A stretch of DNA of 64,000 nucleotides, from contig CALRHD010000002.1 in assembly GCA_943359325.1 (NCBI GenBank), forward strand, positions 4,629 to 68,628, written 5' to 3'. Positions 2,221-63,923 of the stretch are shown in pieces. Both the position numbers and the translations under genes were made by a program. This DNA comes from Candidatus Uhrbacteria bacterium (GTDB lineage: Bacteria > Patescibacteriota > Patescibacteriia > UBA9934). The stretch's first letter is position 1, and every line of letters begins with the position of its first letter. The notes beneath the pieces are model-generated. The model was not told the DNA's origin. It saw only the letters and a program-made list of their open reading frames with translations, and did not search any database.

Positions 2221-2256
2221 GTGATGAGCCTTGTCCACGACTCAGTTGCGGACACC
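2221..2256 (+). repeat. REP-like palindromic element copy 1. It has the flank GTGATGAGCCTTG plus the hairpin GTCCACGAC-TCA-GTTGCGGAC, and the stop codon of the RAYT gene lies inside it.
   Basis: I read this directly. The same core of about 21 nt recurs at 3000, 4336, 17401, 33636, 42864 and 63902. It sits between the convergent recG and RAYT genes. Confidence 0.8.
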
Positions 2257-2880
2257 GCTCCATTCTCGCATAAACTTTTGGTAATCACTTTTTCCTTGAA
2301 ACAGATTACTGAGAATATCCATGCTGACGATAGGATCGTGTACCAGCATCAGATAGTGACTGTAGCTTGACCATGGATATGATGTGAGAAGTGCATTTGC
2401 GACATCCCAGTTTTCTATACCGCGAATCTTCCAGTCGGGGAGAAAGAGCTTGAGTGGATTGAAGTGGATATATCGCGAAATGTGTAGAAGCTGTGCGTCG
2501 CTTTTTATTGGCACAGCCTTATATTCACTTTCCCATAGCCGTCCCGTTCGCTCATTTTGACGATTAAAGTATTGAGCAAAACCAACACCCAACTTCTGCA
2601 TAAAGCGTGATACCCCATTGTCTGATACTTGTTTTAGGAGAAAATGGTAATGATTTGGCATGATCGCGTAACTCATAATTTTCACTAAAGGATTCTTGCT
2701 CGGTGATGGGCGGTGCTGGAGTCTGTGGAGAACGATTCTCCTGTCGCCCGTATCATTGAAGGCGAGCATACTGCGAATGAATCGTTCGCGATCGTTGTCG
2801 TTGCCATACGTCGATCGACGATCAACGCCGCGATTATATACATGATAGTAACCATCATTGACGATTTGTTCCTTGCGCAT
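2242..2880 (-). CDS. IS200/IS605-family HUH Y1 transposase, probably a REP-associated tyrosine transposase (RAYT, TnpA_REP)
   Basis: N-terminal GYYHVYNRG is followed by the HUH motif MPNHYHFLL and a C-terminal RLWESEY...YIHFNPLK with the catalytic Tyr region. There is no tnpB partner. It is flanked on both sides by REP-like hairpins. The start is taken at the Met of MRKEQIV, although the track ORF extends to 2985. Confidence 0.75.
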   Translation of the reverse strand: MRKEQIVNDGYYHVYNRGVDRRSTYGNDNDRERFIRSMLAFNDTGDRRIVLHRLQHRPSPSKNPLVKIMSYAIMPNHYHFLLKQVSDNGVSRFMQKLGVGFAQYFNRQNERTGRLWESEYKAVPIKSDAQLLHISRYIHFNPLKLFLPDWKIRGIENWDVANALLTSYPWSSYSHYLMLVHDPIVSMDILSNLFQGKSDYQKFMREWSGVRN

Positions 2881-2987
2881 AAAAAAGATGTTAAACAGTA
2901 AATAAAAATCTCCCAATGCGCTCATCATAATAGATGAACGTAGGGAGTACGTATTCATTTTCCTGCGAAGCACGACGGACGTCAAGT

Positions 2988-3022
2988 GTGGATAAGTTTG
3001 TCCACGACTCAGTTGCGGACAT
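2988..3022 (+). repeat. REP-like palindromic element copy 2 (GTGGATAAGTTTG-GTCCACGACTCAGTTGCGGAC-AT)
   Basis: Read directly. It lies between the RAYT start and the radA stop, in the same orientation as copy 1. Confidence 0.85.
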
Positions 3023-4320: not shown

Positions 4321-4356
4321 GTGGATAACTATGTCCTCGACTCAGTTGAGGACACT
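4321..4356 (+). repeat. REP-like element copy 3. It is a variant, GTCCTCGAC-TCA-GTTGAGGAC, in which both stem arms have changed in a compensatory way.
   Basis: Read directly. The flank GTGGATAACTATG is conserved and the stem carries an A>T change paired with a C>A change. It lies between the radA start and the stop of ORF 4355..5812. Confidence 0.8.
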
Positions 4357-8496: not shown

Positions 8497-10989
8497 TTTT
8501 ACACGTTTTTTGTGCATGCGCGTTACGCGGAATATTCCATTGCTTTCCGTGACGACAACCTCGCGCGGTAGTTTTGATGTGGTAAGCATGAGGTCGGCAA
8601 TGGGGTGTTCGATGTGTTCTTCAATGATGCGACGAACGTCACGAGCACCGTATTTTTCGGTGACGGTGTGCGCAACGGCGTTGGCGATGTGTTTCGTGGC
8701 GCACAATGTGACGCCAAGTGTGGCAAGGCGTTTCGCAGTATCGGCAAGCGCGATGCGTGCGATGAGGGTGAAGTCATCGAATTCGAGTGGGCGGAATAGG
8801 CAGGTGTGGTCGATACGATTGAGAAGCTCGGGGCGGAAATGGTCTTCGAGGAGCAAACGAATATCGTCGCGGAATTGCGCACTCGATACGGTTTGGTCGC
8901 TCACAAAACCGAGGCCATGTTGGTGGAAGCGTTCGCGCCCTGCATTTGTGGTCATGACGATAACTGCATTGCGGAAAGAGACGCTGCGCCCCGTTGCGTC
9001 GGTCAATACGCCGTCGTCAAGAATTTGGAGGAGCAAGTTATGGACGTCGCCATGTGCTTTTTCGAGTTCATCGAAGAGAATAACCGAGTGAGGGCGTGCG
9101 AGAACGGCATCGGTGAGTTTTGCGCCTTCGCGAAACCCGACGTAGCCCGCAGGAGAGCCGATGAGTTTGCTCACGGAAAAACTTTCTCCGAATTCGGACA
9201 TGTCGAAACGCACGAGCGCGTTCGGGTCGTCGAAGACTTCGGCAGCAATCGCGCGTGCAAGTTCGGTTTTTCCCACGCCCGATGGCCCGACGAAGAGGAA
9301 CGACGCGAGCGGACGTTTGGGCTGCGCCAATCCGAGGCGGGCGCGTTGCAGTGCTGCGGCAACACGAGTCACGGCGTCGTGTTGACCAACAACGCGCGCC
9401 GAAAGTCGCTCGGCAAGCGTACGGAGTGCGGCGGATTCATTCGCGGAAAGTCGTGACACGGGAATGCCGGTCATGTGTGCGACGGCAGCATTGATACGTG
9501 CACGGTCGAGCACAAGCGGTGCGCTCGTTGGTGCCTGTTTCTTGAGCGCGCCGTGTTCTTTTCGGAGTGCAGTCTCTTCGGTTTTGCAGGCAAGTGCTTC
9601 GGAAAAGCGTTCTTCAAAAACGGCCGCAGCTTTTCGCATGCGCAGTGTGTCGAGACATGCGGCAATGTCACGAAGTTGTGCGGCATGTTGCGCATGGCGT
9701 TTACCGTACACTGCTGCCGATCCTGCTTCATCTAAAATGTCGATTGCCTTGTCGGGAAAATGTTTTCCGTGCATGTAGCGTTCAGAAAGTGTGAGCGCAG
9801 CCTCGATCGCGTCTTTCGTAAAACGTACGCCGTGGTACTTTTCGTATGCGGGCTGAATGCCAAAAAGTATCGTGCGCGTTTCGGCGAGTGTTGGTTCGTT
9901 GACGGTAATTTTTTGGAATCGTCGTTCGAGCGCAGCGTCGGGTTCTATTTCTTTTTTATATTCGGCAGGCGTTGTTGCGCCAATGCAGCGCAATTCACCA
10001 CGCGCAAGTGCAGGCTTCAAAATGTTTGCCGCGTCGAGCGATCCCGATGCCGCGCCTGCACCAACCACGGTATGCATTTCGTCGATAAACAAAACGATGT
10101 CGGGATGATCGTAGATTTCGTCCAAGATATGCTGGAGTCGCTGCTCAAAGTCGCCACGATACATCGTTCCCGCGACAAGTGTCGCCATATCGAGGCGGAA
10201 AATGCGTTTGTTTTTGAGCGCGTCAGGAACCTTACCGTCGACGATTGCTTTTGCAAGCCCTTCCACGATCGCGGTTTTACCAACGCCTGTTTCGCCTACA
10301 AGCACAGGATTATTTTTTGTTCGACGTAACAAAACGTGCGCAAGCCGTGCGACTTCGTGTTCGCGACCAATGAGCGGGTCGATGCGTGCGGCTACTTCGC
10401 GTGTCGTTAGTTCGGTTGTAAAAAAGTCGAGCGCAGGAGTTTTCTTCGTTTCCACGTTGCACTCTTTGCATTCGGTGTCGTCGGAGTGCGTGTGCGGTGT
10501 GGTTTCTTCGTCGACGTGAACGTTCGGGAACGACGTCGTCGTGCGAAACACCGCCTGCAAATTTTGTACGAGATTTCTTTCGCGTATGCCGCTGTCGTGG
10601 AAAAATGCACGGATATTTTTCTGTGCGAGCTGCAAAAGTCCTGCGAGCAAGTGTTCGGTGCCGACGTGGTGGTGTTCGTGCATGCTTGCCGTCAACACCG
10701 CTTTTTCTATCGCGGTTTTCGCGTCATTCGACAGGAGCGGCGTTTTGTCATTTACGGTGAGTGGAGAAAATGAAGTCTTTCCTGCAGCCACTTTTGCGAA
10801 TATACGCAATGCCTCTTCCTTCACTCCCGCCTTTGCAAGAACCTCCGCGCCAATACTGCCGCGTTCCGTGCCAAGCGACCACAATAATTCTCGCAGCCCG
10901 ATTTCTTCGCCGCCATGCTCCACGACAAGACACAACGCTCGTGTGAGCACACTTTTTAAGTGCGATGTAAATTTATCCGTCAATTCCAT
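8485..10989 (-). CDS. clpC: Clp/Hsp100 ATPase (ClpC-type ATP-binding chaperone subunit)
   Basis: Clp_N repeats are followed by two AAA+ modules. The Walker A motifs are [14 protein letters not shown] and [15 protein letters not shown], and the signature [10 protein letters not shown] is present. The start is at the Met of MELTDKF, although the track ORF starts at 11070. Confidence 0.85.
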
Positions 10990-11078: not shown

Positions 11079-11840
11079 ATGTCTATTCGCGGGAAAAAAC
11101 TTGTTGCGTTTGATCTTGATGGCACACTCACGGAAAGTAAGATGCCGATGGACGCCGAGATGGCGGACCTGCTTGACCAATTGTTGCACCATGTGATGGT
11201 CGCAATTATTTCAGGAGGTGCGTACATGCAGTTTGAGCGCCAACTTGCAGTTTTGAAATCTGGACCAGAAGAATTGCGAAAACTTTTTTTCTTTCCTACG
11301 ACCGGTACACGGTTTTTTCGTTACGAAAATGACTGGAAACAGATTTATGCAGATGAGCTGACGGAAGATGAACGTACGAAAATTAAAGATGCGTTCGAAA
11401 AGGCGTTTGTCGACGTACATTATGCGCATCCGAAAAAAGTATACGGCGAGGTTGTCGAAGATAGAGGAACACAGATAACGTTTTCCGCCGTTGGTCAAGA
11501 TGCGCCAATCGAGGCAAAGAAATTATGGAAGGCGACGCAGGATCGGCGTGCAGAAATTGTGCAGGCGCTTGAAAAATATATTCCTGATTTTGAAGTCAAG
11601 ATGCCCGGGCTTTCGTCGATTGATGTCACACGAAAAGGGGTGGATAAAGCCTACGGGATTCAGAAAATTGAGGAACTCCTTGGTGTGGTCGTACCGGAGA
11701 TAGTGTTTGTTGGTGATGCGTTGTACGAGGGCGGGAATGATCATGCGGTTATTCGGACCGGTGTCGAGACTGTTGCGGTGGAGAATGCAGAAGAAACAAA
11801 AATGTTGTTGCGCGGGTGGCTCGCTGAATTTACTGCATAG
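11079..11840 (+). CDS. HAD-superfamily hydrolase (Cof/IIB-like)
   Basis: Motif I is DLDGTLT. The C-terminal GDALYEGGNDHAV matches HAD motif IV. Confidence 0.6.
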   Translation: MSIRGKKLVAFDLDGTLTESKMPMDAEMADLLDQLLHHVMVAIISGGAYMQFERQLAVLKSGPEELRKLFFFPTTGTRFFRYENDWKQIYADELTEDERTKIKDAFEKAFVDVHYAHPKKVYGEVVEDRGTQITFSAVGQDAPIEAKKLWKATQDRRAEIVQALEKYIPDFEVKMPGLSSIDVTRKGVDKAYGIQKIEELLGVVVPEIVFVGDALYEGGNDHAVIRTGVETVAVENAEETKMLLRGWLAEFTA

Positions 11841-11883: not shown

Positions 11884-12375
11884 ATGGCTTCTGATCTCAC
11901 AAAACAGGATCTCATTGATGCACTTCGTGGTTTGGCCACGAAAGAAGATCTGCTTCGATTTGCTACGAAGCAGGATCTTTTGGCGATACGTGAGGAAATG
12001 GCGACGAGTTTTTCATCGGTTCGTGAGGAAATGGAGACGAGTTTTTCATCGGTTCGTGAGGAAATGGAGAAAAATCACGGTGAGGTGCTGCAAATCATCA
12101 ACACGCTTTCGTCAAGTACCGATGCGGGATTTGCTCATATGCATGAAGTTATGGCGACGAAAGAGTATGTGGATAAACGTATCACCCAGTCCGAGCACGC
12201 AATAAAAGATTTTGTAGATCGTCGTGCGAGCAAAATCGAAGATGAACTCTCTGCTCCGCTAAGGGCGGTCGACGAGAAAGACACCGCACTCATCACGCAT
12301 CTCGGTAATAAAAAAGTTATTGCAAAGCCCGACGTTGCGGCTATCGTCGCGCTGTCTCCATTTGCCGCACGGTAG
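11884..12375 (+). CDS. Hypothetical coiled-coil protein with an internal tandem repeat
   Basis: A 36-nt in-frame repeat encodes SVREEMETSF twice. A TAGAAT -10-like hexamer lies about 10 nt upstream of the ATG and there is no Shine-Dalgarno sequence. Confidence 0.45.
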   Translation: MASDLTKQDLIDALRGLATKEDLLRFATKQDLLAIREEMATSFSSVREEMETSFSSVREEMEKNHGEVLQIINTLSSSTDAGFAHMHEVMATKEYVDKRITQSEHAIKDFVDRRASKIEDELSAPLRAVDEKDTALITHLGNKKVIAKPDVAAIVALSPFAAR

Positions 12376-12384
12376 TCGTCGCGT

Positions 12385-13455
12385 ATGTTTTCTGTCCTCT
12401 TATTTCTCGTCATTCTTTCTGTCCTCGTGTTGGCGCACGAAGCAGGGCATTATGTTGCGGCACGGATTGCGAAGGTGAAAGTTGAAGAATTCGGACTGGG
12501 CTTCCCGCCGCGTATTTTTTCGTGGAAAAATAAAAATGGGATGACGTGGAGTCTGAACGCCATTCCGCTCGGCGGGTTTGTAAAGCTGAAAGGTGAAAGT
12601 GGCGATGAGCGTGCGGCGCATGACAGTTTTGCGCGGCAGTCGCTTGCAAAGCGTTTTTTTGTGCTTGTGGCAGGTGTCGGCATGAATCTTGTTACCGCAG
12701 CAGTTATTTTTGGTGTGGGATTCGTGATTGGCATGCCGACTATTGTCGACGGCGGCATTGCGGGCGGCACGGTGAGCAATCAGGATATTCGTGTTATCGA
12801 AGTGTTGCCCGATTCTCCTGCGTCGCAGGCAGGCATTCTTGTGGGTGACAAACTTGTTGGCATTGACGGCGTCGCGTACACGTCGAGCACCGCAGCACGA
12901 GACGCACTTTCACTTAGTGCACCACACACGGTAACATTTGCGCGTGGCGACGTGGAAGTCGTCGCGACGCTCGATCCTACGTTCATCCCCTCGCTCAATC
13001 GCGCCGTTGTCGGCCTCGGTCTTGTCGAGACGGGCACGGTGCGGTTCCCATGGTATGCGGCACCGTTCATGGGCATACGTGCTGCGGCGTCGTCGACATG
13101 GCAAGTGCTTTCTGCTTTTGGCGTATTGCTTGCAAGCCCATTCACACACGCAAATATTGGCGCAGAAGTTTCTGGCCCGATCGGCATTGCCGTCCTTACG
13201 GGTGAAGTCGCAAAACTCGGCATTGCCCATGTACTGCAATTCGCCGCCATGCTTTCCATTAACCTCGCGATCATCAACATTCTTCCTATACCCGCTCTTG
13301 ACGGCGGCCGTGTGGCGTTCCTCGCTCTCGAAGCGATTCGCCGAAAACCCACGACGCCGCGCGTGGAACAAATGGTGCATGCCGCAGGCTTCGCGGTGTT
13401 GCTCTTGCTCATTGTTGTGGTAACGTTGAAAGATATTGTGGGGCTGTTCTCTTAG
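12385..13455 (+). CDS. rseP: RIP (site-2) zinc metalloprotease RseP
   Basis: The HEAGHY zinc motif lies in the first transmembrane helix. The protein has a PDZ domain and the C-terminal LDGG motif. Confidence 0.85.
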   Translation: MFSVLLFLVILSVLVLAHEAGHYVAARIAKVKVEEFGLGFPPRIFSWKNKNGMTWSLNAIPLGGFVKLKGESGDERAAHDSFARQSLAKRFFVLVAGVGMNLVTAAVIFGVGFVIGMPTIVDGGIAGGTVSNQDIRVIEVLPDSPASQAGILVGDKLVGIDGVAYTSSTAARDALSLSAPHTVTFARGDVEVVATLDPTFIPSLNRAVVGLGLVETGTVRFPWYAAPFMGIRAAASSTWQVLSAFGVLLASPFTHANIGAEVSGPIGIAVLTGEVAKLGIAHVLQFAAMLSINLAIINILPIPALDGGRVAFLALEAIRRKPTTPRVEQMVHAAGFAVLLLLIVVVTLKDIVGLFS

Positions 13456-13458
13456 CGT

Positions 13459-14532
13459 ATGAAAGACGAACTCGAAAAACTCGTTGTCGACCTGACTGCT
13501 GCGCTTTCTTCGGTGCACGACACTGCGGCACTCGAAGTAGTGCGCGTAGAATATGTCGGTCGAAAAGGCAGGCTCGCCGAACTCATGAAGGGGCTGGCGG
13601 CGCTTTCTGTTGACGAGAAAAAAGTTATTGGTCAAATTGCAAACAGCGTGAAGGCGCGCGTCGAAGCGGAATTTGCGCGAGTTGAAAAAATGATTGCTGA
13701 CGCCGACGTCAAAGCGCGAATGACGCGCGAATGGCTCGACGTTACGCTTCCGGGAGCGGCGCCAAGTGTCGGGCATCTTCACTTGGTGTCGCAAGCAATA
13801 GAAGACATTACGGATATTTTTCGGCGGCTTGGTTTTGTACGCGCTCGGCACCCAGAAATCGACGGCGATTATTACGCGTTTGAGGCGTTGAACATGCCGA
13901 AGGATCATCCTGCACGAGATGAATGGGAAACGTTTTTTATACGCGACTCTCACAGTGCGGAAGTGATGCAGGGGCAAAAGGGGAAAATGGTGTTGACGCC
14001 ACACACGAGCAACGGGCAAGTACGAGAAATGGAGAAGGGCGTGTTGCCGATTCGTATGATCAGTATCGGAAAGTGCTATCGACGACAGTCGACGGCGCGA
14101 CATTCGCCGATGTTTCACCAGTTCGAAGGTTTGGTCATTGATAAAAAGTCTTCGGTAACGGAATTGAAGGGCGTGTGCGAATATTTTGCAAAGAGTTATT
14201 TTGGTGCCGACCGCACAACGCGGTTGCGCCCATATCACTTTCGTTTTACGGAGCCAAGTTTTGAGTTGGATATTTCGTGCGGCATTTGTAAGGGCGTAGG
14301 AAGCGTTGGTGGTGTTAAGTGTAAATTGTGCAAAGAGGGCTGGCTTGAGTTGGGCGGTGCGGGCATGGTGCACCCGAACGTCATTAAGGCGGGAGGCCTC
14401 GATCCTGACGTGTACGCAGGATTCGCTTTTGGCTGGGGCGTTGAACGCACGATGATGATGCGTGCAGGCGTAAACATCGACGATATTCGCATTTTGTACA
14501 GAAATGACTTGCGATTCATTCGGCAGTTTTAG
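13459..14532 (+). CDS. pheS: Phenylalanine--tRNA ligase alpha subunit
   Basis: Class II aaRS motifs are present: FRRLGF, FTEPSFELD and GAGMVHPNVIKAGG...GFAFGWGVERT. A 4-Cys insertion (CGICKG..CKLCK) sits before motif 3. Confidence 0.9.
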   Translation: MKDELEKLVVDLTAALSSVHDTAALEVVRVEYVGRKGRLAELMKGLAALSVDEKKVIGQIANSVKARVEAEFARVEKMIADADVKARMTREWLDVTLPGAAPSVGHLHLVSQAIEDITDIFRRLGFVRARHPEIDGDYYAFEALNMPKDHPARDEWETFFIRDSHSAEVMQGQKGKMVLTPHTSNGQVREMEKGVLPIRMISIGKCYRRQSTARHSPMFHQFEGLVIDKKSSVTELKGVCEYFAKSYFGADRTTRLRPYHFRFTEPSFELDISCGICKGVGSVGGVKCKLCKEGWLELGGAGMVHPNVIKAGGLDPDVYAGFAFGWGVERTMMMRAGVNIDDIRILYRNDLRFIRQF

Positions 14533-14542
14533 TTATGAACAA

Positions 14543-14676
14543 TTTCTCCCACATAACATACTCCGTTCCTTGTGAAGCCCCGCAGCCGCAGTCCGTACAC
14601 AAGGCCTCGGCTTACGCCGGCCACGGACTGACGGGCGGCGCCTCACGACGTCACGAAGTATGTTATGTGGGAGAAA
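14543..14676. repeat. GC-rich structured intergenic repeat, copy 1 (about 134 bp, ERIC/MITE-like) with perfect 20-bp terminal inverted repeats TTTCTCCCACATAACATACT / AGTATGTTATGTGGGAGAAA
   Basis: Read directly. The core CCCCGCAGCCGCAGTCCGTACA(G)CAAGGCCTCGGCTTACGCCGGCCACGGACTGACGGGCGG recurs at 51934, 59989 and 61416. It lies between pheS and pheT. Confidence 0.85.
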
Positions 14677-14685
14677 TCAGTGATT

Positions 14686-17061
14686 ATGAATAATTTCGCT
14701 TCCTACAATTGGCTGAAAGAATATTGTAAAACGACATTGTCGCCAGAGGATTTTAGTAGTGAGATAAGTTTGCGTTCGATGTCGGTCGAAAAAGTTGACC
14801 ATGTGAGTGAGCGTTTTGCACACATCATCGTCGGCTTGGTGAACGAGGTGCGCCCGCATCCCAATGCTGACAAATTGCGGATTGCAACGGTGAGTATGGG
14901 GAGCGCGGCAGTGGAAATCGTGTGCGGCGGCACGAATCTTGTAGAGGGAATGAAGGTCGCACTTGCGCTTCCAGGATCGACGGTCATCGGCCACGATGGG
15001 CAACGTGTGACGCTCGCCGTGAACACGATTCGTGGCGTAGAAAGTCCGGGAATGTTGTGCGGGCCTGACGAACTTGGTTTTGGTGCCCTTAAAAAAGGCG
15101 CACATGAAATTTGGGATTTAGGTGCGGTGACCGATGCAAAGGCGGGTACGCCACTCGCCGAGGCGCTCGGCATCGACGACGTCATGTTCGATGTTGAGAT
15201 TACGACCAACCGCCCCGACGCAATGGGTATTGTGGGTTTGGCGCGCGAAGCAGGTGCGGCGTGTGGCGCACCGTTTGCATGGCAGCCACCCATTTTTCCT
15301 GTCGCTGCGAATGACATTCCGTTTACGGTCGCGATTGAAGACGCGTCGCGCTGTTTGCGTCAAATGGCGGTTGTCATCGACGGTGTCACGGTCGCACCAT
15401 CGCCATGGTGGCTGCAGGCACGACTGTTGTTGGCAGGTTTGCGACCGATTAACAACATTGTCGACATTACAAATTACGTCATGCTCGAGTACGCCCAACC
15501 GCTTCACGCATTTGATTATAAAAAATTGGATGGTGCAGAAATTCGCGTGCGGCAGGGAAGGGCGGGAGAAAAATTGGTTGCACTCAACGGGAAGGAATAT
15601 GACGTTGAGGGTGTGCTTGTGCTTGCCGATGCAGTGAAGCCGCTCGACATTGCGGGGATTATGGGAGGCGAGCATACAGGCACGACGTCAGAAACGACCA
15701 CCGTCGTACTTTCGGCGTCGGCGTTCGACCATGTGGCGCTTCGCCGAACGTCGCGTGCGCTTCATCTGCAAAGCGACGCGCAACTTTTGTTCGAAAAAGG
15801 TTTGTCGACGGAAGCGCCGCCGTTTGCGTTGGCTCGTGCCGTTGAACTTATTGCAAAAATTGCGGGCGGTCGCGTGGCGAGCCCCGTGTGCGATGAACGT
15901 GTTTCGCCGTATGTACCGATCGTGTTGACGTGCAACCCGCAAAAAATTCGTGAGCGTATTGGCATCGACATTTCCGACGTACGCATTCTAGAAATTTTGA
16001 CGCAACTTGGATTTGCCGTTGATCAATTGCATGGAGCGTGGAGTGTCATCGTTCCGTGGTGGCGCGATCATGATATTGAGGACGCGATCGATCTTTCTGA
16101 AGAAGTCGCGCGCATTTACGGTTATCACGAACTACCCGCAATACTCCCGAGTGGAGTTCCTCCTACAACACCTGAAGACGCAACACTTGTGTGGGAGCGT
16201 TGGTGTAAGCGGTTTTTTGCAGGTGCAGGGTACGACGAATTTTTCAGCAACTCGTTTGTGAGTGCTGACGACCTCGCGCGGTACGGTGAAGACGCTGCGC
16301 AGTCGTATGCATTGTTGAATCCGCTCGCAAGTGATTTGTCGCACATGCGAATGTCGCTCATGCCGTCGATATTGCGTGCGGTAGAGTCAAATCAAGGGCA
16401 TATCGCGTCGGCGAAGTTTTTCGAGTTGTCGCGTGTGTACATTCCTCACGGCAATGACATGCCCGAAGAGCGCATGCAGCTTGTGCTCGGCGAATATGGG
16501 CACGACGACGTGGAAAAAGCATTCATGCGTACGCGCGGCGTGCTCGATGTGTTTGCTGCGCGAACCGGTCTTTCGTTGACGCTGCTTCGCGACGAAACTG
16601 ATGCGCGGTGGCACCCTTCGCGCACGGCGAAAATTATGCACGGCGAGGTGTGTGTGGGGCGCATCGGAGAAATCGCTTTTGCAACGCAAATTGCATTCGG
16701 CATTAATCGGCGCGTTATGGTGCTCGCCCTCGACCTCGAGACACTTTTTTCGTCCATGCATCTCACGCATCGGTATGTTCCCGTGTCTGAATTCCCTTCT
16801 GTTGTTCGCGACCTTTCGATTATCCTCGACGAACGAGCGACGTTCGACGACATTGTGCGATGCGCGAAGAACGACATTGTTGCGAGCGCAGCACTTGTCG
16901 ATGTGTATCGCGGTGCGGGCGTTCCCGAAGGAAAAAAGAGCATGACGGTGTCATTCACCATGCAAGTAGAGAGAACGTTGACGTCAGAAGAAGCAGACAC
17001 CGCGCTCGCGGTGATTAGTGAGAAGCTTGTTTCCGAATTATCGGGTATACTCCGTTCATAA
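14686..17061 (+). CDS. pheT: Phenylalanine--tRNA ligase beta subunit
   Basis: The N-terminus is SYNWLKEY. The protein has the tRNA-binding (OB) domain, the B3/B4 domains and the C-terminal FDVY..K..S.T...T motif. The start is set at MNNFAS, downstream of the repeat. Confidence 0.9.
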   Translation: MNNFASYNWLKEYCKTTLSPEDFSSEISLRSMSVEKVDHVSERFAHIIVGLVNEVRPHPNADKLRIATVSMGSAAVEIVCGGTNLVEGMKVALALPGSTVIGHDGQRVTLAVNTIRGVESPGMLCGPDELGFGALKKGAHEIWDLGAVTDAKAGTPLAEALGIDDVMFDVEITTNRPDAMGIVGLAREAGAACGAPFAWQPPIFPVAANDIPFTVAIEDASRCLRQMAVVIDGVTVAPSPWWLQARLLLAGLRPINNIVDITNYVMLEYAQPLHAFDYKKLDGAEIRVRQGRAGEKLVALNGKEYDVEGVLVLADAVKPLDIAGIMGGEHTGTTSETTTVVLSASAFDHVALRRTSRALHLQSDAQLLFEKGLSTEAPPFALARAVELIAKIAGGRVASPVCDERVSPYVPIVLTCNPQKIRERIGIDISDVRILEILTQLGFAVDQLHGAWSVIVPWWRDHDIEDAIDLSEEVARIYGYHELPAILPSGVPPTTPEDATLVWERWCKRFFAGAGYDEFFSNSFVSADDLARYGEDAAQSYALLNPLASDLSHMRMSLMPSILRAVESNQGHIASAKFFELSRVYIPHGNDMPEERMQLVLGEYGHDDVEKAFMRTRGVLDVFAARTGLSLTLLRDETDARWHPSRTAKIMHGEVCVGRIGEIAFATQIAFGINRRVMVLALDLETLFSSMHLTHRYVPVSEFPSVVRDLSIILDERATFDDIVRCAKNDIVASAALVDVYRGAGVPEGKKSMTVSFTMQVERTLTSEEADTALAVISEKLVSELSGILRS

Positions 17062-17384: not shown

Positions 17385-17421
17385 GTGGATAACTATGTCC
17401 ACGACTCAGTTGCGGACATAA
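17385..17421 (+). repeat. REP-like element copy 4 (GTGGATAACTATG-GTCCACGACTCAGTTGCGGAC-AT)
   Basis: Read directly. It lies immediately upstream of the dnaE start, and the track ORF translates it as a spurious MDNYVHDSVADI N-terminal extension. Confidence 0.85.
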
Positions 17422-17444: not shown

Positions 17445-20400
17445 ATGCGAGCGTATCGTCGTCGTATGGATCCGAAGAATTTTGTTTATCTCCACAATCA
17501 TTCGCATTACTCGCTTTTGGAGGCGCTGCCGAAGCCGAAAAGCCTCGTGAAACGCGCGAAAGAGCTGGGAATGTCGACATTGGCGTTGACGGACAACGGG
17601 GCGCTGTATGGTGCGGTCGAGTTTTTTAAGGCGTGTAAAGATGCCGAAATGAAGCCCATTCTTGGCATGGACACCTACGTTGCGCCGTACCGCATGACCG
17701 ATCGCCGACCGCGTGTCGACGAACGGGCGTTGCGACTCGTGCTCCTCGCCGAGAATGACGAAGGCTACCGTAATCTTCTTCGTATTACGACTGCGGGGTT
17801 TCTTGATGGTTTTTATTACAAGCCGCGCGTTGACAAAGAATTTTTGCGGGAGCATGCACGGGGGTTGATTGCACTTTCGGGGAGTGTGAGCAACGACATC
17901 GCCTTGGCGCTCCTATCCGATGACGTCGACAAAGCGAAGATGCTTGTTGCGAGCTATCAAGATATTTTTGGAAAAGAAAATTTTTATCTTGAACTCATTC
18001 ACCACCCCGACATGCAGCGCCAGCTTGAGGTGAACGAGGCATACAAAAAATTATCGGCGGAAACAGGTGTACCGCTTGTGGCAACACGCAACGTATTTTA
18101 CCTCGACCCCGATGACCGCGAGGGGTATGAGGCGCAGTTGTGCATTATGCGTGGAAGGACGCTCGAAGAATTTCGTCGCACGTCTACCGACGACGTTGAC
18201 TTGTCGTTTGGTACGCCCGAGGAGATTTGCACATATTTTGCCGACGTTCCCGACGCGCTCGAAAATACTGCGAAGATCGCCGAGCGGTGCACGTTTACCA
18301 TGGAGCTTGGAAAAAACTTTCTTCCTGTCTTTCCGCTTCCTCCGGGAAAAACGGACAATGAATATTTTCATGAGTTGTGTATCGCGGGTTTGAAGGAGCG
18401 TTACGCCGACCCCATTCCTGTCGACGTCATGGAGCGATTCGATTTTGAGTACGCGACTATTGAAAAGATGGGATTTGCATCGTACTTTCTTATCGTGCAG
18501 GACTACATCAATTGGGCAAAAAACAACGGCGTGCTCGTAGGGCCCGGCCGTGGAAGTGCAGCGGGAAGTATTGTGGCGTATGCGCTACGCATTACCGACA
18601 TCGAGCCGTTACGTTATGGATTGCTTTTTGAGCGGTTTCTTAACCCCGACCGTGCGTCGCTCCCTGACATTGACACCGACTTTGCCGACCGCGGCCGTGG
18701 AAAAGTCCTCGAATACATCGCACAAAAATACGGCGCTGACCATTGTGCAGGCATTATCACGTTTGGAACCCTCATGCCTCGTGCTGCGGTTCGCGACGCC
18801 GCGCGTGTGCTCGGCCTCACGTTTCAAGAGGCCGACGTTATTGCAAAGGCTGTACCGCCGCCTGTGCAAGGGCGCCACACGCCACTCAAAGAGGCGATTG
18901 TGGAGTCGCCCGACTTGCGGCGTATTGTTGACGGTGACCCGATCGCGCGACGCGTTGTCGACCTCGCCATGAAGCTTGAGGGCAACCCTCGCCACGCCTC
19001 GCAGCACGCATGCGGCATTGTGATTGGTGACAAGCCGCTTGTTGAGCGTGTGCCCCTCCAGAAAGGTCAACATGAAGACATGGCGTTCATTACGCAATAT
19101 TCGCTTAATTCCGCCGAGGCTGCGGGTCTCGTGAAGATGGACTTTCTCGGATTGTCGAACCTCACCGTCATTGAAGACGCACTCGAAATTGTGCGCGCCG
19201 TTCACGGTGTCACTATCGACATCGAGAATGTTCCGTTAGACGACAAAAAAACATTTGCGCTTCTCGGCCGTGGTGATACGACGGGCGTATTTCAGCTGGA
19301 AAGTGATGGCATGAAGCGCTACATTCGCGACCTGAAGCCGACGATGTTTGAAGACATTATTGCAATGGTGTCGCTGTATCGCCCAGGGCCAATGCAGTTT
19401 ATTGAAAGTTTTATTAGTCGCAAACATGGCCGTGAAGCGGTTGCGTACGAACACCCACTTATGGAACGGGCGTTTAAAGAAACGTACGGTATTCCCGTAT
19501 ATCAAGAGCAGGTCATGCAGGTGAGCAAAGACGTTGCAGGTTTTACGGGCGGTGAAGCAGACACGCTTCGTAAGGCGATGGGAAAAAAGATTGCCGAGCT
19601 CATGGCGAAGATGAAAACAAAATTTATCGACGGCGCAGTGAAAAACGGCGTGCGCGCAACTGTTGCAGAAAAGATTTTTCAAAAGTTGGAAGACTTTGCC
19701 GCATATGGGTTCAATAAGTCTCATGCTGCGTGCTATGCAATGATTGCGTACCGCACGGCGTATCTCAAGGCCTACTACCCGGCAGAATTCATGTGTGCCC
19801 TCATGAATAGTGATTCGGGTAATCTCGATCGTATTACTATCGAAGTTGCTGAATGTAGTCGTATGGGGCACGTGGTGTTACCGCCTGACGTCAACGAATC
19901 ATTCCCTGGATTTGCTGTGGTACCGGATACAAAAAACATTCGTTGGGGTTTGCAAGCGATTAAAAATGTCGGCACAGAGATTGCAGAGATTATCGTTCGT
20001 GAGCGTAAGCAAGGCGGAGAGTTTGTCGACCTTCCCGATTTTTTGGGGCGCATCCATGCAAACACATTTAACAAAAAAACGCTTGAGGCGCTTATAAAAA
20101 CCGGTGCGCTCGATCGTTTTGACGACCGTGCAAAACTTTTCACGAACCTTGACCAGCTGCTGTTGTACAACAAGCACATCAACGCATCACGTGAACAAAA
20201 CCAAGTGACACTTTTCGATCTTTCGCCAACGATGGTGACGGAGAAGATTGTGTTGCGCCCGTCCGAAAATATTTCACGGAGCACCATACTTGGGTGGGAA
20301 AAAGAATTACTGGGCTTGTATGTCAGTATGCATCCTGGAGTTCTTTTTGCCGATGCATTTTTGGGTCGTGTCAAAACATGCGCGGAAATTGCTACAATGG

Positions 20401-21957: not shown

Positions 21958-21992
21958 GATGCCCGCAACTTTGTTGCGGGCATCTTTGTATT
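21958..21992 (+). terminator. Intrinsic terminator GATGCCCGCAAC-TTTG-TTGCGGGCATC followed by TTTGTATT
   Basis: Read directly: a perfect 11-12 bp stem followed by a T-run. Confidence 0.75.
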
Positions 21993-22175
21993 CTGAAAAC
22001 TTTTGCGTATCGCCGCCATGGTGTCAAAGAAAAATGCACAACTCTCTCCGCACAACATACTTTCGTTGTCATCCTCATAAAAATAGGGATCCATGTTGAT
22101 GCTGTCTGGATTCCCGCCTACGCGGGAATGACAGAAATTGGGAATATGTTGTGGGGGAAGAGGTATAGAAAAATG

Positions 22176-33622: not shown

Positions 33623-33656
33623 GTGGATAACTATGTCCACGACTCAGTTGCGGACA
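33623..33656 (+). repeat. REP-like element copy 5 (GTGGATAACTATG-GTCCACGACTCAGTTGCGGAC-AT)
   Basis: Read directly. It fills the whole convergent spacer between the thyX stop and the dcd stop. Confidence 0.85.
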
Positions 33657-42852: not shown

Positions 42853-42886
42853 ATGGATAACTCTGTCCACGACTCAGTCGTGGACA
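42853..42886 (+). repeat. REP-like element copy 6. It is a perfect-palindrome variant, GTCCACGAC-TCA-GTCGTGGAC, with the flank ATGGATAACTCTG.
   Basis: Read directly. It lies between the two permease genes. Confidence 0.85.
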
Positions 42887-51915: not shown

Positions 51916-51933
51916 ATTTTATGTTGTACATGG

Positions 51934-52068
51934 CTTTTCCTGCATGGCATGCTCCACTCCTTGTTCAGCCCCGCAGCCGCAGTCCGTACAGCAAGGCCTC
52001 GGCTTACGCCGGCCACGGACTGACGGGCGGTGCCGAACGACGTCGCAAAGCATGCCATGCAGAAAGAG
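51934..52068. repeat. GC-rich structured intergenic repeat, copy 2. Its terminal inverted repeats CTTTTCCTGCATGGCATGCT / AGCATGCCATGCAGAAAGAG differ from copy 1 by compensatory transitions.
   Basis: Read directly. It lies between the rpmE 3' end and the prfA 5' end. Confidence 0.85.
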
Positions 52069-52100
52069 CGTTACGCCCAGTGTATCCGAACTTCGTGCGA

Positions 52101-52547: not shown

Positions 52548-53570
52548 ATGCGAACGCCAATCTCCGATTTTGATTATATTCTTCCTTCCGAGTTCATCGC
52601 GCAAACTCCTTTAACGCCGCGTGACGCGTCGAAGCTCCTCGTGATGGACCGTGAGAGTGGCGCAGTCTCGCACCATATTTTTCGCGATATTGTCGATTTC
52701 CTTCGACACGACGACGTCCTTGTTTTTAACCAGTCAAAAGTTTTTAACGCTCGACTTACATTTTTTTTCCTTTCCAAAGAGATTGAAATTTTCGTTCTCC
52801 GCATTCGCGACAACGAAATGGATGCGCTCGTTCGTCCTCTTAAGAAAATTATTTTTGACGGAATATGGACGATCGGATGTTTTACTCCTATAGCAAAAAC
52901 TACTGATGGCATTGTGACGTTTCACACAGGAATGACCGCAGCAGAGATGTTTGCGTATTGCGATGAGCACGGCAGCGCGCCAACGCCGCCGTATGTCACG
53001 AGACCACTCGCTGATGCGTCGCAGTACCAAACGGTGTATGCAAAAGATGCCGGCTCTGTTGCCGCACCGACGGCGGGGCTGCACTTTACGCCGGAATTGC
53101 TCGAACGCATTCGCGCAAAAGGTGTGCAAATGGAATGTGTGACGCTTCATGTGGGTATTGGCACGTTTCGTCCTATGCAATCGGCAACGATTGAGGAGCA
53201 TGTAATGCATAGCGAGTGGGTGTCGATCGACGATGCGACCGCACAGCGTATTGTGGAAGCAAAAAAATCCGGCCGCCGCATTATTGCCGTTGGCACAACA
53301 ACGGTGCGAGTGCTGGAAGGAGTCACGCTGCGTCGCGGTCAGCTTGAGGGCTATACGGAGGAGGTCGACATGTTCATCACTCCCGGTTTTTCATTTCGTA
53401 TTGTCGATGGTCTTATTACAAACTTTCATCTCCCAAAGTCGACGTTACTCGTTCTCGTTTCCGCCTTCGCCGGCCGTGAACACGTTCTCGCTGCATATAA
53501 AGAGGCAAAACGTCAGAATTATCGGTTCTTTTCGTTCGGAGATGCGATGTTTGTCGTCCCAGACGCCTAG
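52548..53570 (+). CDS. queA: S-adenosylmethionine:tRNA ribosyltransferase-isomerase
   Basis: The N-terminus is DFDYILPSEFIAQTPL and the C-terminal core contains GLHFTPELL...GTT.VR. The start is at MRTPISDF. Confidence 0.88.
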   Translation: MRTPISDFDYILPSEFIAQTPLTPRDASKLLVMDRESGAVSHHIFRDIVDFLRHDDVLVFNQSKVFNARLTFFFLSKEIEIFVLRIRDNEMDALVRPLKKIIFDGIWTIGCFTPIAKTTDGIVTFHTGMTAAEMFAYCDEHGSAPTPPYVTRPLADASQYQTVYAKDAGSVAAPTAGLHFTPELLERIRAKGVQMECVTLHVGIGTFRPMQSATIEEHVMHSEWVSIDDATAQRIVEAKKSGRRIIAVGTTTVRVLEGVTLRRGQLEGYTEEVDMFITPGFSFRIVDGLITNFHLPKSTLLVLVSAFAGREHVLAAYKEAKRQNYRFFSFGDAMFVVPDA

Positions 53571-53612
53571 CGTCTGGGACGAGGGGCGTCTGGGACGCCT
53601 CCTCGATTGACG

Positions 53613-59988: not shown

Positions 59989-60123
59989 CTCTCCCATCAC
60001 AACATACTCCGCTCCTTGTGAAGCCCCGCAGCCGTAGTCCGTACAGCAAGGCCTCGGCTTACGCCGGCCACGGACTGACGGGCGGTGCTACACTGCGTCG
60101 CAAAGTATGTTATGACGGGAGAG
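59989..60123. repeat. GC-rich structured intergenic repeat, copy 3, with terminal inverted repeats CTCTCCCATCACAACATACT / AGTATGTTATGACGGGAGAG
   Basis: Read directly. It lies between the SIMPL gene and eno. Confidence 0.85.
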
Positions 60124-61415: not shown

Positions 61416-61507
61416 CGCCCCCGCAGCCGCAGTCCGTACGGCAAGGCCTCGGCTTACGCCGGCCACGGACTGACGGGCGGTGCCGAACGACGTCGCAAAG
61501 CATGTAG
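61416..61507. repeat. GC-rich structured repeat, copy 4, which is partial: the 5' arm is missing and it abuts the eno stop codon
   Basis: Read directly. The core and 3' arm are present but there is no outer terminal inverted repeat. Confidence 0.8.
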
Positions 61508-63885: not shown

Positions 63886-63923
63886 GTGGGGATAAGTATG
63901 TCCACGACTGAGTCGTGGACATA
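63886..63923 (+). repeat. REP-like element copy 7 (GTGGGGATAAGTATG-GTCCACGAC-TGA-GTCGTGGAC-AT), a perfect palindrome with an inverted loop
   Basis: Read directly. It lies in the lexA upstream region. Confidence 0.85.

Follow-up and report, generated by a model that had tools for sequence, protein, structure and literature searches.

We analyzed a stretch of 64,000 nucleotides from a Candidatus Uhrbacteria bacterium, hereafter the window (contig CALRHD010000002.1 of assembly GCA_943359325.1, positions 4,629 to 68,628 of the forward strand). Between the housekeeping genes of this metagenome-assembled genome (MAG), from an uncultured, ultra-small member of the Patescibacteria or Candidate Phyla Radiation (CPR), lie at least four insertions of a ~135-bp non-coding DNA repeat that is predicted to form a long hairpin. 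A reading of the letters alone (the sequence-only reading) had placed four copies, with the core read on the + strand, at 14543..14676, 51934..52068, 59989..60123, and 61416..61507, and all four are there. The copies, together with a fifth, related element, are listed below; strands refer to the better-folding strand, which is also the one matched by our covariance models.

Copy 1: 14542..14677, - strand, full element in the pheS-pheT spacer, core ~14567-14652
Copy 2: 51933..52069, - strand, full element, arms of a variant (GCATGC) type, located behind the rpmE terminator and ahead of the prfA ATG
Copy 3: 59989..60123, - strand, full element between SIMPL and eno, with the eno ATG (60147) 24 nt downstream
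Copy 4: 61416..61507, - strand, truncated element, core only, 98.8% identical to the core of copy 2
Fifth, chimeric element: 22042..22162, - strand, outer arms ~80% like those of copies 1 and 3

A multi-copy repeat family

The four copies share a near-identical core, as had been noticed from the letters, with pairwise identities of 93-99% (blastn). A 24-nt core probe allowing at most 3 mismatches matched three of them, compared with 0.00 matches expected from 100 shuffles; the copy at 14.5 kb carries a 1-nt deletion that hides it from this probe, and it was recovered by repeat search and blastn. Stems of ~22-25 bp close copies 1-3 (the arms of copy 1, 14542-14566 and 14653-14677, are 96% complementary); copy 4 (61416-61507) is without both arms and consists of the core only. 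The high GC content that had been remarked on is also borne out: it is 0.75 in the core and 0.57-0.63 over whole elements, compared with 0.50-0.53 in the window. The copies fall into two types, copies 2 and 4 versus copies 1 and 3, reported here as arm types even though copy 4 is core only. Each type is present in two copies and thus both variants have multiplied. The fifth element (22042-22162, hereafter the 22-kb element), which the sequence-only reading did not list, has arms homologous to those of copies 1 and 3 around an unrelated core. In place of the family core it holds a doublet (GTCATCC..GGATCC / GGATTCCCGC..GCGGGAATGAC) that resembles a REPIN, the paired form of repetitive extragenic palindromic (REP) sequences.

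The count therefore stands at four copies plus one chimeric element within the ~83 kb of contig examined, where no further copies were found. The element is without a credible open reading frame (ORF). In its small size (~135 bp), non-coding nature, and multiple copies, it conforms to a miniature inverted-repeat transposable element (MITE).

The window sequence is contig CALRAF010000003.1 of NCBI MAG GCA_943350455.1, and the relatives of its PheS and enolase are Candidatus Uhrbacteria and other Patescibacteria MAGs. The same sequence with the same junctions is found in the NCBI MAG and in the assemblies of two separate ENA samples. Logan short-read contigs also carry the repeat, and they end inside copies 1 and 4. 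Breaks within the repeat could be taken as a sign of a collapsed or chimeric repeat arising in assembly or binning, a concern that the sequence-only reading had itself raised. However, the junctions are identical across the MAG and both sample assemblies, the copies are distinguished by single-nucleotide polymorphisms and by their arms, and the flanking genes are intact. The shared junctions, together with short-read contigs that end inside copies, establish that the repeat is real and multi-copy, and we regard the chance of an artifact as negligible.

Genes and signals around the copies

Copies do lie inside the pheS-pheT operon (copy 1) and just before the enolase ribosome-binding site (RBS), where copy 3 sits ahead of eno's own GAAGGAG. 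The broader claim that every copy is co-transcribed with its neighbors is wrong. Copy 2 stands behind the rpmE terminator (52129-52111) and ahead of the prfA ATG (51915), both on the - strand, so that its better-folding strand is the transcribed one. Copy 4 begins directly after the eno stop codon, between the convergent genes eno and dinB. The 22-kb element is also outside a co-transcribed spacer, with a terminator (21958-21984) on one side and a TGCTATAAT box (TGnTATAAT) on the other. A reading of the copies as intrinsic terminators was rejected, because none has a T-run after it.

At copy 1, the right arm carries GGGAGA (14669-14674) at the Shine-Dalgarno position for the pheT ATG at 14686, where it is buried in the stem. 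Upstream, a duplicated ATG (14535) is the start of a 52-codon ORF across the hairpin; its TAA (14691-14693) overlaps the true pheT start, so that the ORF ends 5 nt past the real pheT ATG. Conceivably, this arrangement might keep pheT translated. The NCBI call for pheT starts ~90 nt downstream at this locus (window 14779), and the ENA call uses 14686.

A single-strand fold under selection

The predicted folds of the element are very stable. RNA fold energies range from -68 to -82 kcal/mol on the + strand and from -85 to -95 kcal/mol on the - strand, with z-scores of -6 to -12.6 relative to shuffles. The sub-helices picked out in the sequence-only reading (CAGTCCGT with ACGGACTG, the CGGC-TTAC-GCCG hairpin, and the GGCC pairs) are all present in the minimum-energy folds. 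Three parts emerge: an outer stem that varies but keeps its pairing, an internal loop rich in GA, and an inner hairpin rich in GC, the latter two being conserved. The loop contains tandem GA/GA, as in a K-turn, but its strand with extra nucleotides misfits the canonical layout, and we make no claim of a K-turn.

We find that pairing is maintained while sequence changes. Among the three full copies, both partners have changed in 12 of the 54 predicted pairs, and pairing holds in 98% of cells. None of 500 shuffles matched this observation, and sliding the partners against each other gave 0-3 double-changed pairs. Most of the double changes (10/12) fall in the outer stem, and the inner stem has two compensated transversions. 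Where an outer-stem stretch of copies 1 and 2 was compared by eye, 8 of 20 arm positions differ, all by transitions; the changes are mirrored in both arms, and every pair that differs there stays paired. Their cores are ~93% identical; ~35-40% of arm positions differ, compared with ~5-7% of core positions. Terminal inverted repeats had been proposed for each full copy, and inverted ends are indeed present in copies 1-3. Their sequence, however, does not appear to be conserved; the stems vary yet keep pairing. The single-strand fold of the element is under selection.

Copies are recent insertions

The sequence-only reading had proposed a search for empty sites, and such sites exist in relatives at two of the loci. 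Between the pheS stop and the pheT ATG, 12 relatives have 1-11 nt (e.g., TAGTTTATGAATAAT), compared with 153 nt in the window. Between the SIMPL stop and the eno ATG there are 3 nt in L090, a relative with an 86% identical enolase, compared with 166 nt in the window. These near-zero spacers show that the window copies are insertions. The core is absent from relatives with 86-89% identical enolase and from ~80 pheS loci. The C-terminus of enolase is intact relative to its relatives, and copy 4 follows right after the stop codon. We conclude that insertion of the element is recent and lineage-restricted.

Copy 1 is flanked by a direct repeat:

Left flanking direct repeat of copy 1, TTATGAACAATTTC: 14533..14546, + strand, duplicate of the pheT start region
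Right flanking direct repeat of copy 1, TTATGAATAATTTC: 14684..14697, + strand, native pheT start with ATG 14686 (ENA gene call)

The duplicated pheT start matches the native one at 13 of 14 positions, which none of 500 shuffles reached. The 22-kb element is flanked by a direct repeat, AGAAAAATG, with a 10/11 match that 4 of 500 shuffles reached. In the same shuffle test, copies 2 and 3 have no significant flanking direct repeat. The lengths of the direct repeats also differ, at 7-14 bp for copy 1 and 9-10 bp for the 22-kb element. No sequence match between arms and flanks, as would be expected of arms acting as target-derived guides, was found except for an ATTTC overlap at copy 1.

Direct repeats would be expected of an ordinary MITE, that is, an internal-deletion derivative of an insertion sequence (IS) whose terminal inverted repeats are read by a DDE transposase that makes target-site duplications. 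The ~135 bp size, the lack of coding capacity, the 22-25-bp inverted ends, and the direct repeats at copy 1 and the 22-kb element all fit such an origin, as does the presence of two elements with common arms and unrelated interiors, a feature of MITE families. However, the arms are the least conserved part of the element and their changes are mirrored, which fits selection for pairing and not for a transposase-binding sequence. In addition, copies 2 and 3 are without a significant direct repeat, the repeats that do occur are of unequal length, and the 83 kb examined revealed no parent IS that shares these ends. The Pfam-annotated genes, from look-ups covering most of the contig examined, and direct scans of the other large ORFs likewise include no transposase with such ends, which is why we read the element as non-autonomous. 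Strict replication polarity, described below, is also unexpected for DDE elements. Together, these points make an ordinary MITE an unlikely explanation.

The empty sites also bear on a cis-acting RNA role of the kind suggested in the sequence-only reading. On that view selection would favor the hairpin for its action in the mRNA, be it as an RNase III or other processing site, a stabilizer of upstream mRNA, an attenuator, or a gate that hides the pheT RBS. Copies 1 and 3 lie within operons and copy 2 lies in the prfA leader, the folds are very stable, and pairing is kept through compensatory changes. At copy 1, GGGAGA in the stem and the 52-codon ORF that ends on the pheT start could couple translation. 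Yet the element is not kept at the same sites in relatives, which have the 1-11-nt spacers described above, and this favors selfish insertion over a dedicated regulatory RNA. Furthermore, copy 4 and the 22-kb element are outside co-transcribed spacers, and the lack of T-runs means that the copies are not intrinsic terminators. The orientation of the copies, to which we return below, argues in the same direction.

A sister family in a related genome

A covariance model (R1, Infernal) representing the - strand of copies 1-3 finds five elements, at 24-45 bits, in 42.7 kb of a related 1.08-Mb genome (ENA ERZ4201064 NODE_1; PheS 73% identical). They lie on two of the related loci compared (loci are numbered with the prefix L):

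Sister copies on L094, R1 matches: 11405-11533, 13967-14100, and 17880-18017
Sister copies on L096, R1 matches: 9791-9928 and 12604-12741

Reciprocally, a model of the five sister copies only (R2) finds window copy 1 (38 bits) and copy 2 (31 bits). Common to both families is the loop 5'-GACG(U/A)C / (A/U)AGGA-3', with GA facing GA, which is present in four of the five sister copies (L6d has TAGAA). The sister family shows covariation of its own: 11 of 47 pairs have double changes, in covarying inner stems, while the outer stem is variable with pairing kept and the apical part is conserved. In 3/5 sister copies the hairpin is immediately preceded by GTAG, within a conserved 5' tail. One sister copy lies between SIMPL and eno, as does copy 3. 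The shared loop motif suggests homology of the two families.

Several side observations concern these elements and the models. In the sister genome, a tract rich in CTAC (3-4 times GTAG when read on the opposite strand) stands beside hairpin elements at L096 1905-1954 and 9939-9988, and a short motif, CCAAGGCTCGGG, recurs beside the hairpin elements. The CTAC tracts and CCAAGGCTCGGG suggest mosaic arrangements like those of bacterial interspersed mosaic elements (BIMEs). In the window, a GC-rich hairpin (GC 0.68) at 53551-53600, at the end of queA and ahead of rpsB, gives a weak R1 match (16.6 bits); it is probably an ordinary terminator-like stem. A descriptor combining the outer stem with GACGNN...NAGGA was too noisy over ~0.8 Mb of related loci, where only the known copies scored 12/12.

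Orientation tracks replication

In all 10 elements, five in the window and five in the sister genome, the strand matched by the model (the model-sense strand) is the one rich in C. Both regions have positive GC skew over their whole length, even where genes run in blocks on the minus strand; the sample comprises one replichore per genome. An orientation bias relative to the replication strand, as sought in miniature elements of the IS200/IS605 type, is thus present. Relative to genes, orientation is mixed. The model-sense strand is in the transcript of an adjacent minus-strand gene at copy 2 (rpmE-prfA), at copy 4 (with respect to dinB), and at the sister copy L6e (dinB side), and it is antisense to transcription in the remaining elements. 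Orientation that is uniform relative to GC skew and mixed relative to genes shows that it tracks replication, not transcription. We also find that the C-rich strand folds better in 8/8 full elements, with both RNA and DNA parameters (by 2.8-10.5 kcal/mol).

These data add to the case against a cis-acting RNA. Orientation is mixed relative to transcription and uniform relative to replication, and the mRNA of the operon copies carries the weaker-folding strand. We consider it improbable that such a role accounts for the repeat.

The preference for one strand could instead point to independent genes for small RNAs or antisense RNAs, expressed from the C-rich strand with its better fold and GA/GA loops. 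That strand is the more stable one in every full element, the minimum-energy folds of copies 1-3 contain 13 G-U pairs on it versus 3 on the other, and functional RNAs typically combine conserved loops and covarying stems. In the sister family, however, there is no such asymmetry in G-U pairs (25 versus 26). No promoter- or terminator-like signals are tied to the copies, the upstream sequence is different at each copy, and there is no Rfam match. The truncated and chimeric copies resemble decay and not maintained genes. RNA genes of this kind are a very improbable source of the family.

Database searches and comparison with known repeats

The sequence-only reading did not recognize the repeat as a known RNA family, and database searches agree. 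Rfam gave 0 matches for the window at gathering thresholds, and a covariance check in permissive E-value mode (copies 1 and 2 and one sister copy) gave chance-level matches only (E>=0.2), far below thresholds. ARAGORN found no tRNA or transfer-messenger RNA (tmRNA). There was no match in plasmid, phage, or viral collections, and an origin from any of these was rejected. Core 21- to 23-mers are absent from viral, GTDB-species, and JGI metagenome collections, and exact 20-23-mers gave 0 matches in genome and metagenome collections apart from one chance match, in L091. A concatenated six-frame translation used as a protein query revealed no copies called as spurious ORFs among called proteins. 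In the literature searched, we found no description of REP-, enterobacterial repetitive intergenic consensus (ERIC)-, or MITE-type repeats in CPR bacteria, nor of REP-associated tyrosine transposase (RAYT) systems. The proposal of a novel GC-rich hairpin repeat family of ERIC/MITE type is supported.

REPs are 20-40 nt long, and in a REPIN two REPs face each other in inverted orientation, the ends being highly conserved and the middle variable. In REP units, which form hairpins, compensatory changes are common (PMC3116915). The REP transposase TnpA_REP recognizes GTAG, a hallmark of REPs, and recognizes a single strand only (PMC8266576). The element studied here resembles the REP/REPIN-RAYT system in being an extragenic, non-coding, multi-copy hairpin, with a RAYT-like Y1 gene in the window, and its sister family has GTAG 5' of the hairpin (3/5). 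Like REPs, it is a compensated hairpin with a preferred strand (12/54 and 11/47 double changes in the two families, 8/8 fold bias, and 10/10 polarity); recognition by a protein is putative. It differs in having a conserved middle and variable ends, the opposite of the REPIN pattern, in the lack of GTAG in the window family, in a RAYT-like gene that is bracketed by another repeat (D2, below), and in its CPR host.

ERIC sequences, also called intergenic repeat units (IRU), are imperfect palindromes of ~127 bp found in either orientation in transcribed intergenic regions of Enterobacteriaceae and Vibrio, where they form long RNA hairpins that can alter mRNA decay. A ~135-bp palindromic hairpin in intergenic regions is similar in design. 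However, blastn in distant mode against 5,426 E. coli genomes gave no match, and the element is thus not a member of ERIC or of the E. coli REPs; its strict replication polarity and its hypervariable arms with kept pairing also set it apart. Correia elements (NEMIS) of Neisseria, along with RUP, Nezha, and bcr1, are 100-160 bp long with inverted ends, lie near gene starts, and are co-transcribed as hairpins that are RNase III substrates. In Correia elements the 26-bp inverted repeats are conserved and the duplication is always TA; our element has variable arms and inconsistent direct repeats.

PATEs, which derive from IS200/IS605, are mobilized by a Y1 HUH transposase as single-stranded DNA, with replication-biased orientation, separate subterminal hairpins, and no target duplication. 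The element shares the replication-biased orientation, and a Y1 gene lies in the window. In contrast, it forms a single long hairpin, direct repeats flank some of its copies, and its C-rich strand folds better; two subterminal hairpins without target duplication are not what we observe. Integron attC sites (e.g., VCR) are imperfect palindromes of 60-140 bp that conserve structure over sequence and are active as one folded strand. The studied element similarly keeps structure rather than arm sequence. But its copies form no cassette array (the neighbors are pheS/pheT, eno, and prfA), no integrase was seen beside them, and inspection of the arms revealed no attC core sites (RYYYAAC/GTTRRRY). Together with integron attC sites, we dropped the template or variable repeat of a diversity-generating retroelement, a retron, and a CRISPR/TIGR array on the grounds of context: the copies are intergenic and dispersed, with no reverse transcriptase, integrase, or array nearby.

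This comparison places the element with the palindromic repeats of REP/REPIN, ERIC, and MITE type. It differs from them by its conserved center and drifting arms, inconsistent direct repeats, lack of GTAG, and CPR host.

A candidate transposase and other repeats

Two further features of the window are relevant to mobility:

RAYT-like HUH/Y1 transposase gene: 2242..2928, - strand, PF01797 (Y1_Tnp) E 1.7e-9, motifs NHYH and YIHFNP
D2 repeat, seven copies in one orientation: 2232-2254, 2999-3021, 4332-4354, 17396-17418, 33634-33656, 42864-42886, and 63899-63921

The Y1 gene is the only transposase-like gene inside the window, among the Pfam-annotated loci and the large ORFs scanned. Against the NCBIfam model for REP-associated tyrosine transposases (NF047646) it scores 52 bits, below the cut-off of 80. 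In a PDB sequence search, the closest entry to its protein is ISDra2 TnpA, at a marginal E of 0.83. From its sequence, the Y1 protein is a candidate enzyme that might act on the repeat in trans; the link between the two is circumstantial.

D2 is a 23-bp near-perfect palindrome, TGTCCACGACTCAGTTGCGGACA, preceded in 6/7 copies by GTGGATAAcTA or a close variant, and three copies carry a perfect DnaA-box-like TGTGGATAA. The pair of D2 copies around the RAYT-like gene resembles a REPtron. D2 copies also lie just upstream of radA, dnaE, and lexA, and an SOS-type operator is an alternative. D2 is absent from all relatives' loci compared. A motif shared by D2 and the core of our element (CCACG-ACT) was too weak and was not used.

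The REPIN-like doublet of small hairpins (GTCATCCC..GGGATCC facing GGATTCCCGC..GCGGGAATGAC) that lies inside the arms of the studied family at window 22070-22135 also recurs in several Uhrbacteria genomes: L037 5400-5470, L007 8388-8452, L047 3905-3965, L088 ~12032-12060, and L089 ~958-986. Once, it stands directly upstream of pheT. Long GC-rich hairpins unrelated to ours are found in the same spacers of other lineages (pheS-pheT, SIMPL-eno, and tsf-gap):

Unrelated spacer hairpin: L005 5072-5215
Unrelated spacer hairpin: L088 1090-1318 (the same in L089)
Unrelated spacer hairpin: L096 1776-1870

A further family (GGGTCCTGCCG...CCGCGTCACCCG) is common to the L005 and L096 hairpins; the sequence that comes after it is CTAC in L096 (GTAG when read on the opposite strand) and ATAC in L005. 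A few spacers seem to be permissive landing sites in these compact genomes. Left of the window (4.6 kb), there is a gene for a large serine recombinase (Resolvase, Recombinase, and Zn_ribbon_recom domains; L098 17137-18465, contig ~1976-3304). It may mark an integrated element, and gene calls at this locus differ between the two sample assemblies.

Proposed mode of propagation

We propose that the repeat is probably a lineage-restricted, non-coding, non-autonomous mobile element of REP/MITE type, a hairpin that uses a strand-specific single-stranded DNA route. This explanation ranks above the four alternatives weighed above. The repeat, its fold, its insertion, the covariation, the strand bias, and the sister family are demonstrated by the data, whereas the route through single-stranded DNA, the HUH enzyme, and side effects at the RNA level are inferred. 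The essential feature of the element would be its long single-strand hairpin. Its recent insertions have gone into the few short spaces between genes where a compact CPR genome tolerates them; afterwards, copies would decay, as in copy 4, or be overwritten, as in the 22-kb element. Only copies that can still fold would propagate, which would explain the compensatory changes. Orientation that is uniform relative to replication and independent of transcription suggests a strand-specific single-stranded DNA form. Movement or persistence might therefore involve such DNA at the replication fork, as for REP/REPIN sequences and IS200/IS605 elements with their HUH (Y1) transposases. That an HUH enzyme mobilizes the element is a tentative suggestion that we hold with some doubt. 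Where copies are co-transcribed (pheS-pheT, SIMPL-eno, and the prfA leader), the transcript would contain a very stable RNA hairpin, which may affect processing or translation; such RNA-level effects are most likely by-products.

Several points weigh against the proposed single-stranded DNA element and its HUH enzyme. GTAG is absent from copies 1-3 on either strand. Flanking direct repeats occur at copy 1 and at the 22-kb element, although target duplication is not a feature of HUH transposition. It is the C-rich strand that folds better, whereas the active strand of IS200/IS605 elements is the G-rich lagging-strand template. The RAYT-like gene is bracketed by D2 hairpins (2232 and 2999) and not by the studied element, which thus forms no REPtron with it. 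The likeness of the two families could partly be convergence of generic long GC-rich hairpins. Only ~83 kb of the window's genome and 43 kb of its sister are covered by the sample, with one replichore each. Finally, it is possible that the hairpin has a function as RNA, including effects on pheT and eno.

More speculatively, and with considerable reservation, the two families might represent an undescribed class of "giant REP-like" CPR replicators: single-strand hairpins of ~140 nt with GA/GA loops as protein recognition sites and covarying stems, copied with strict replication polarity, perhaps by divergent RAYT-like HUH enzymes. If this were so, their density of 1 per 9-20 kb would amount to ~1-2% of highly streamlined genomes.

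Significance

CPR/Patescibacteria genomes are ~1 Mb in size, dense, and usually deemed repeat-poor. Our results show that essential operons of such a genome are open to invasion by a hairpin replicator, among them pheS-pheT, the eno cluster of glycolysis, and the leader of prfA. They also show that related genomes harbor their own families in the same few permissive spacers. In practical terms, such repeats break the short-read contigs of CPR MAGs, and copy 1 coincides with a shifted NCBI pheT call. The combination of a conserved loop, drifting but paired stems, and 10/10 replication polarity provides a clean natural system for learning what a structure-recognizing mobilization machinery reads. 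Should the elements also act as gates on pheT or eno translation, regulatory variation in these regulator-poor organisms would have a new source.

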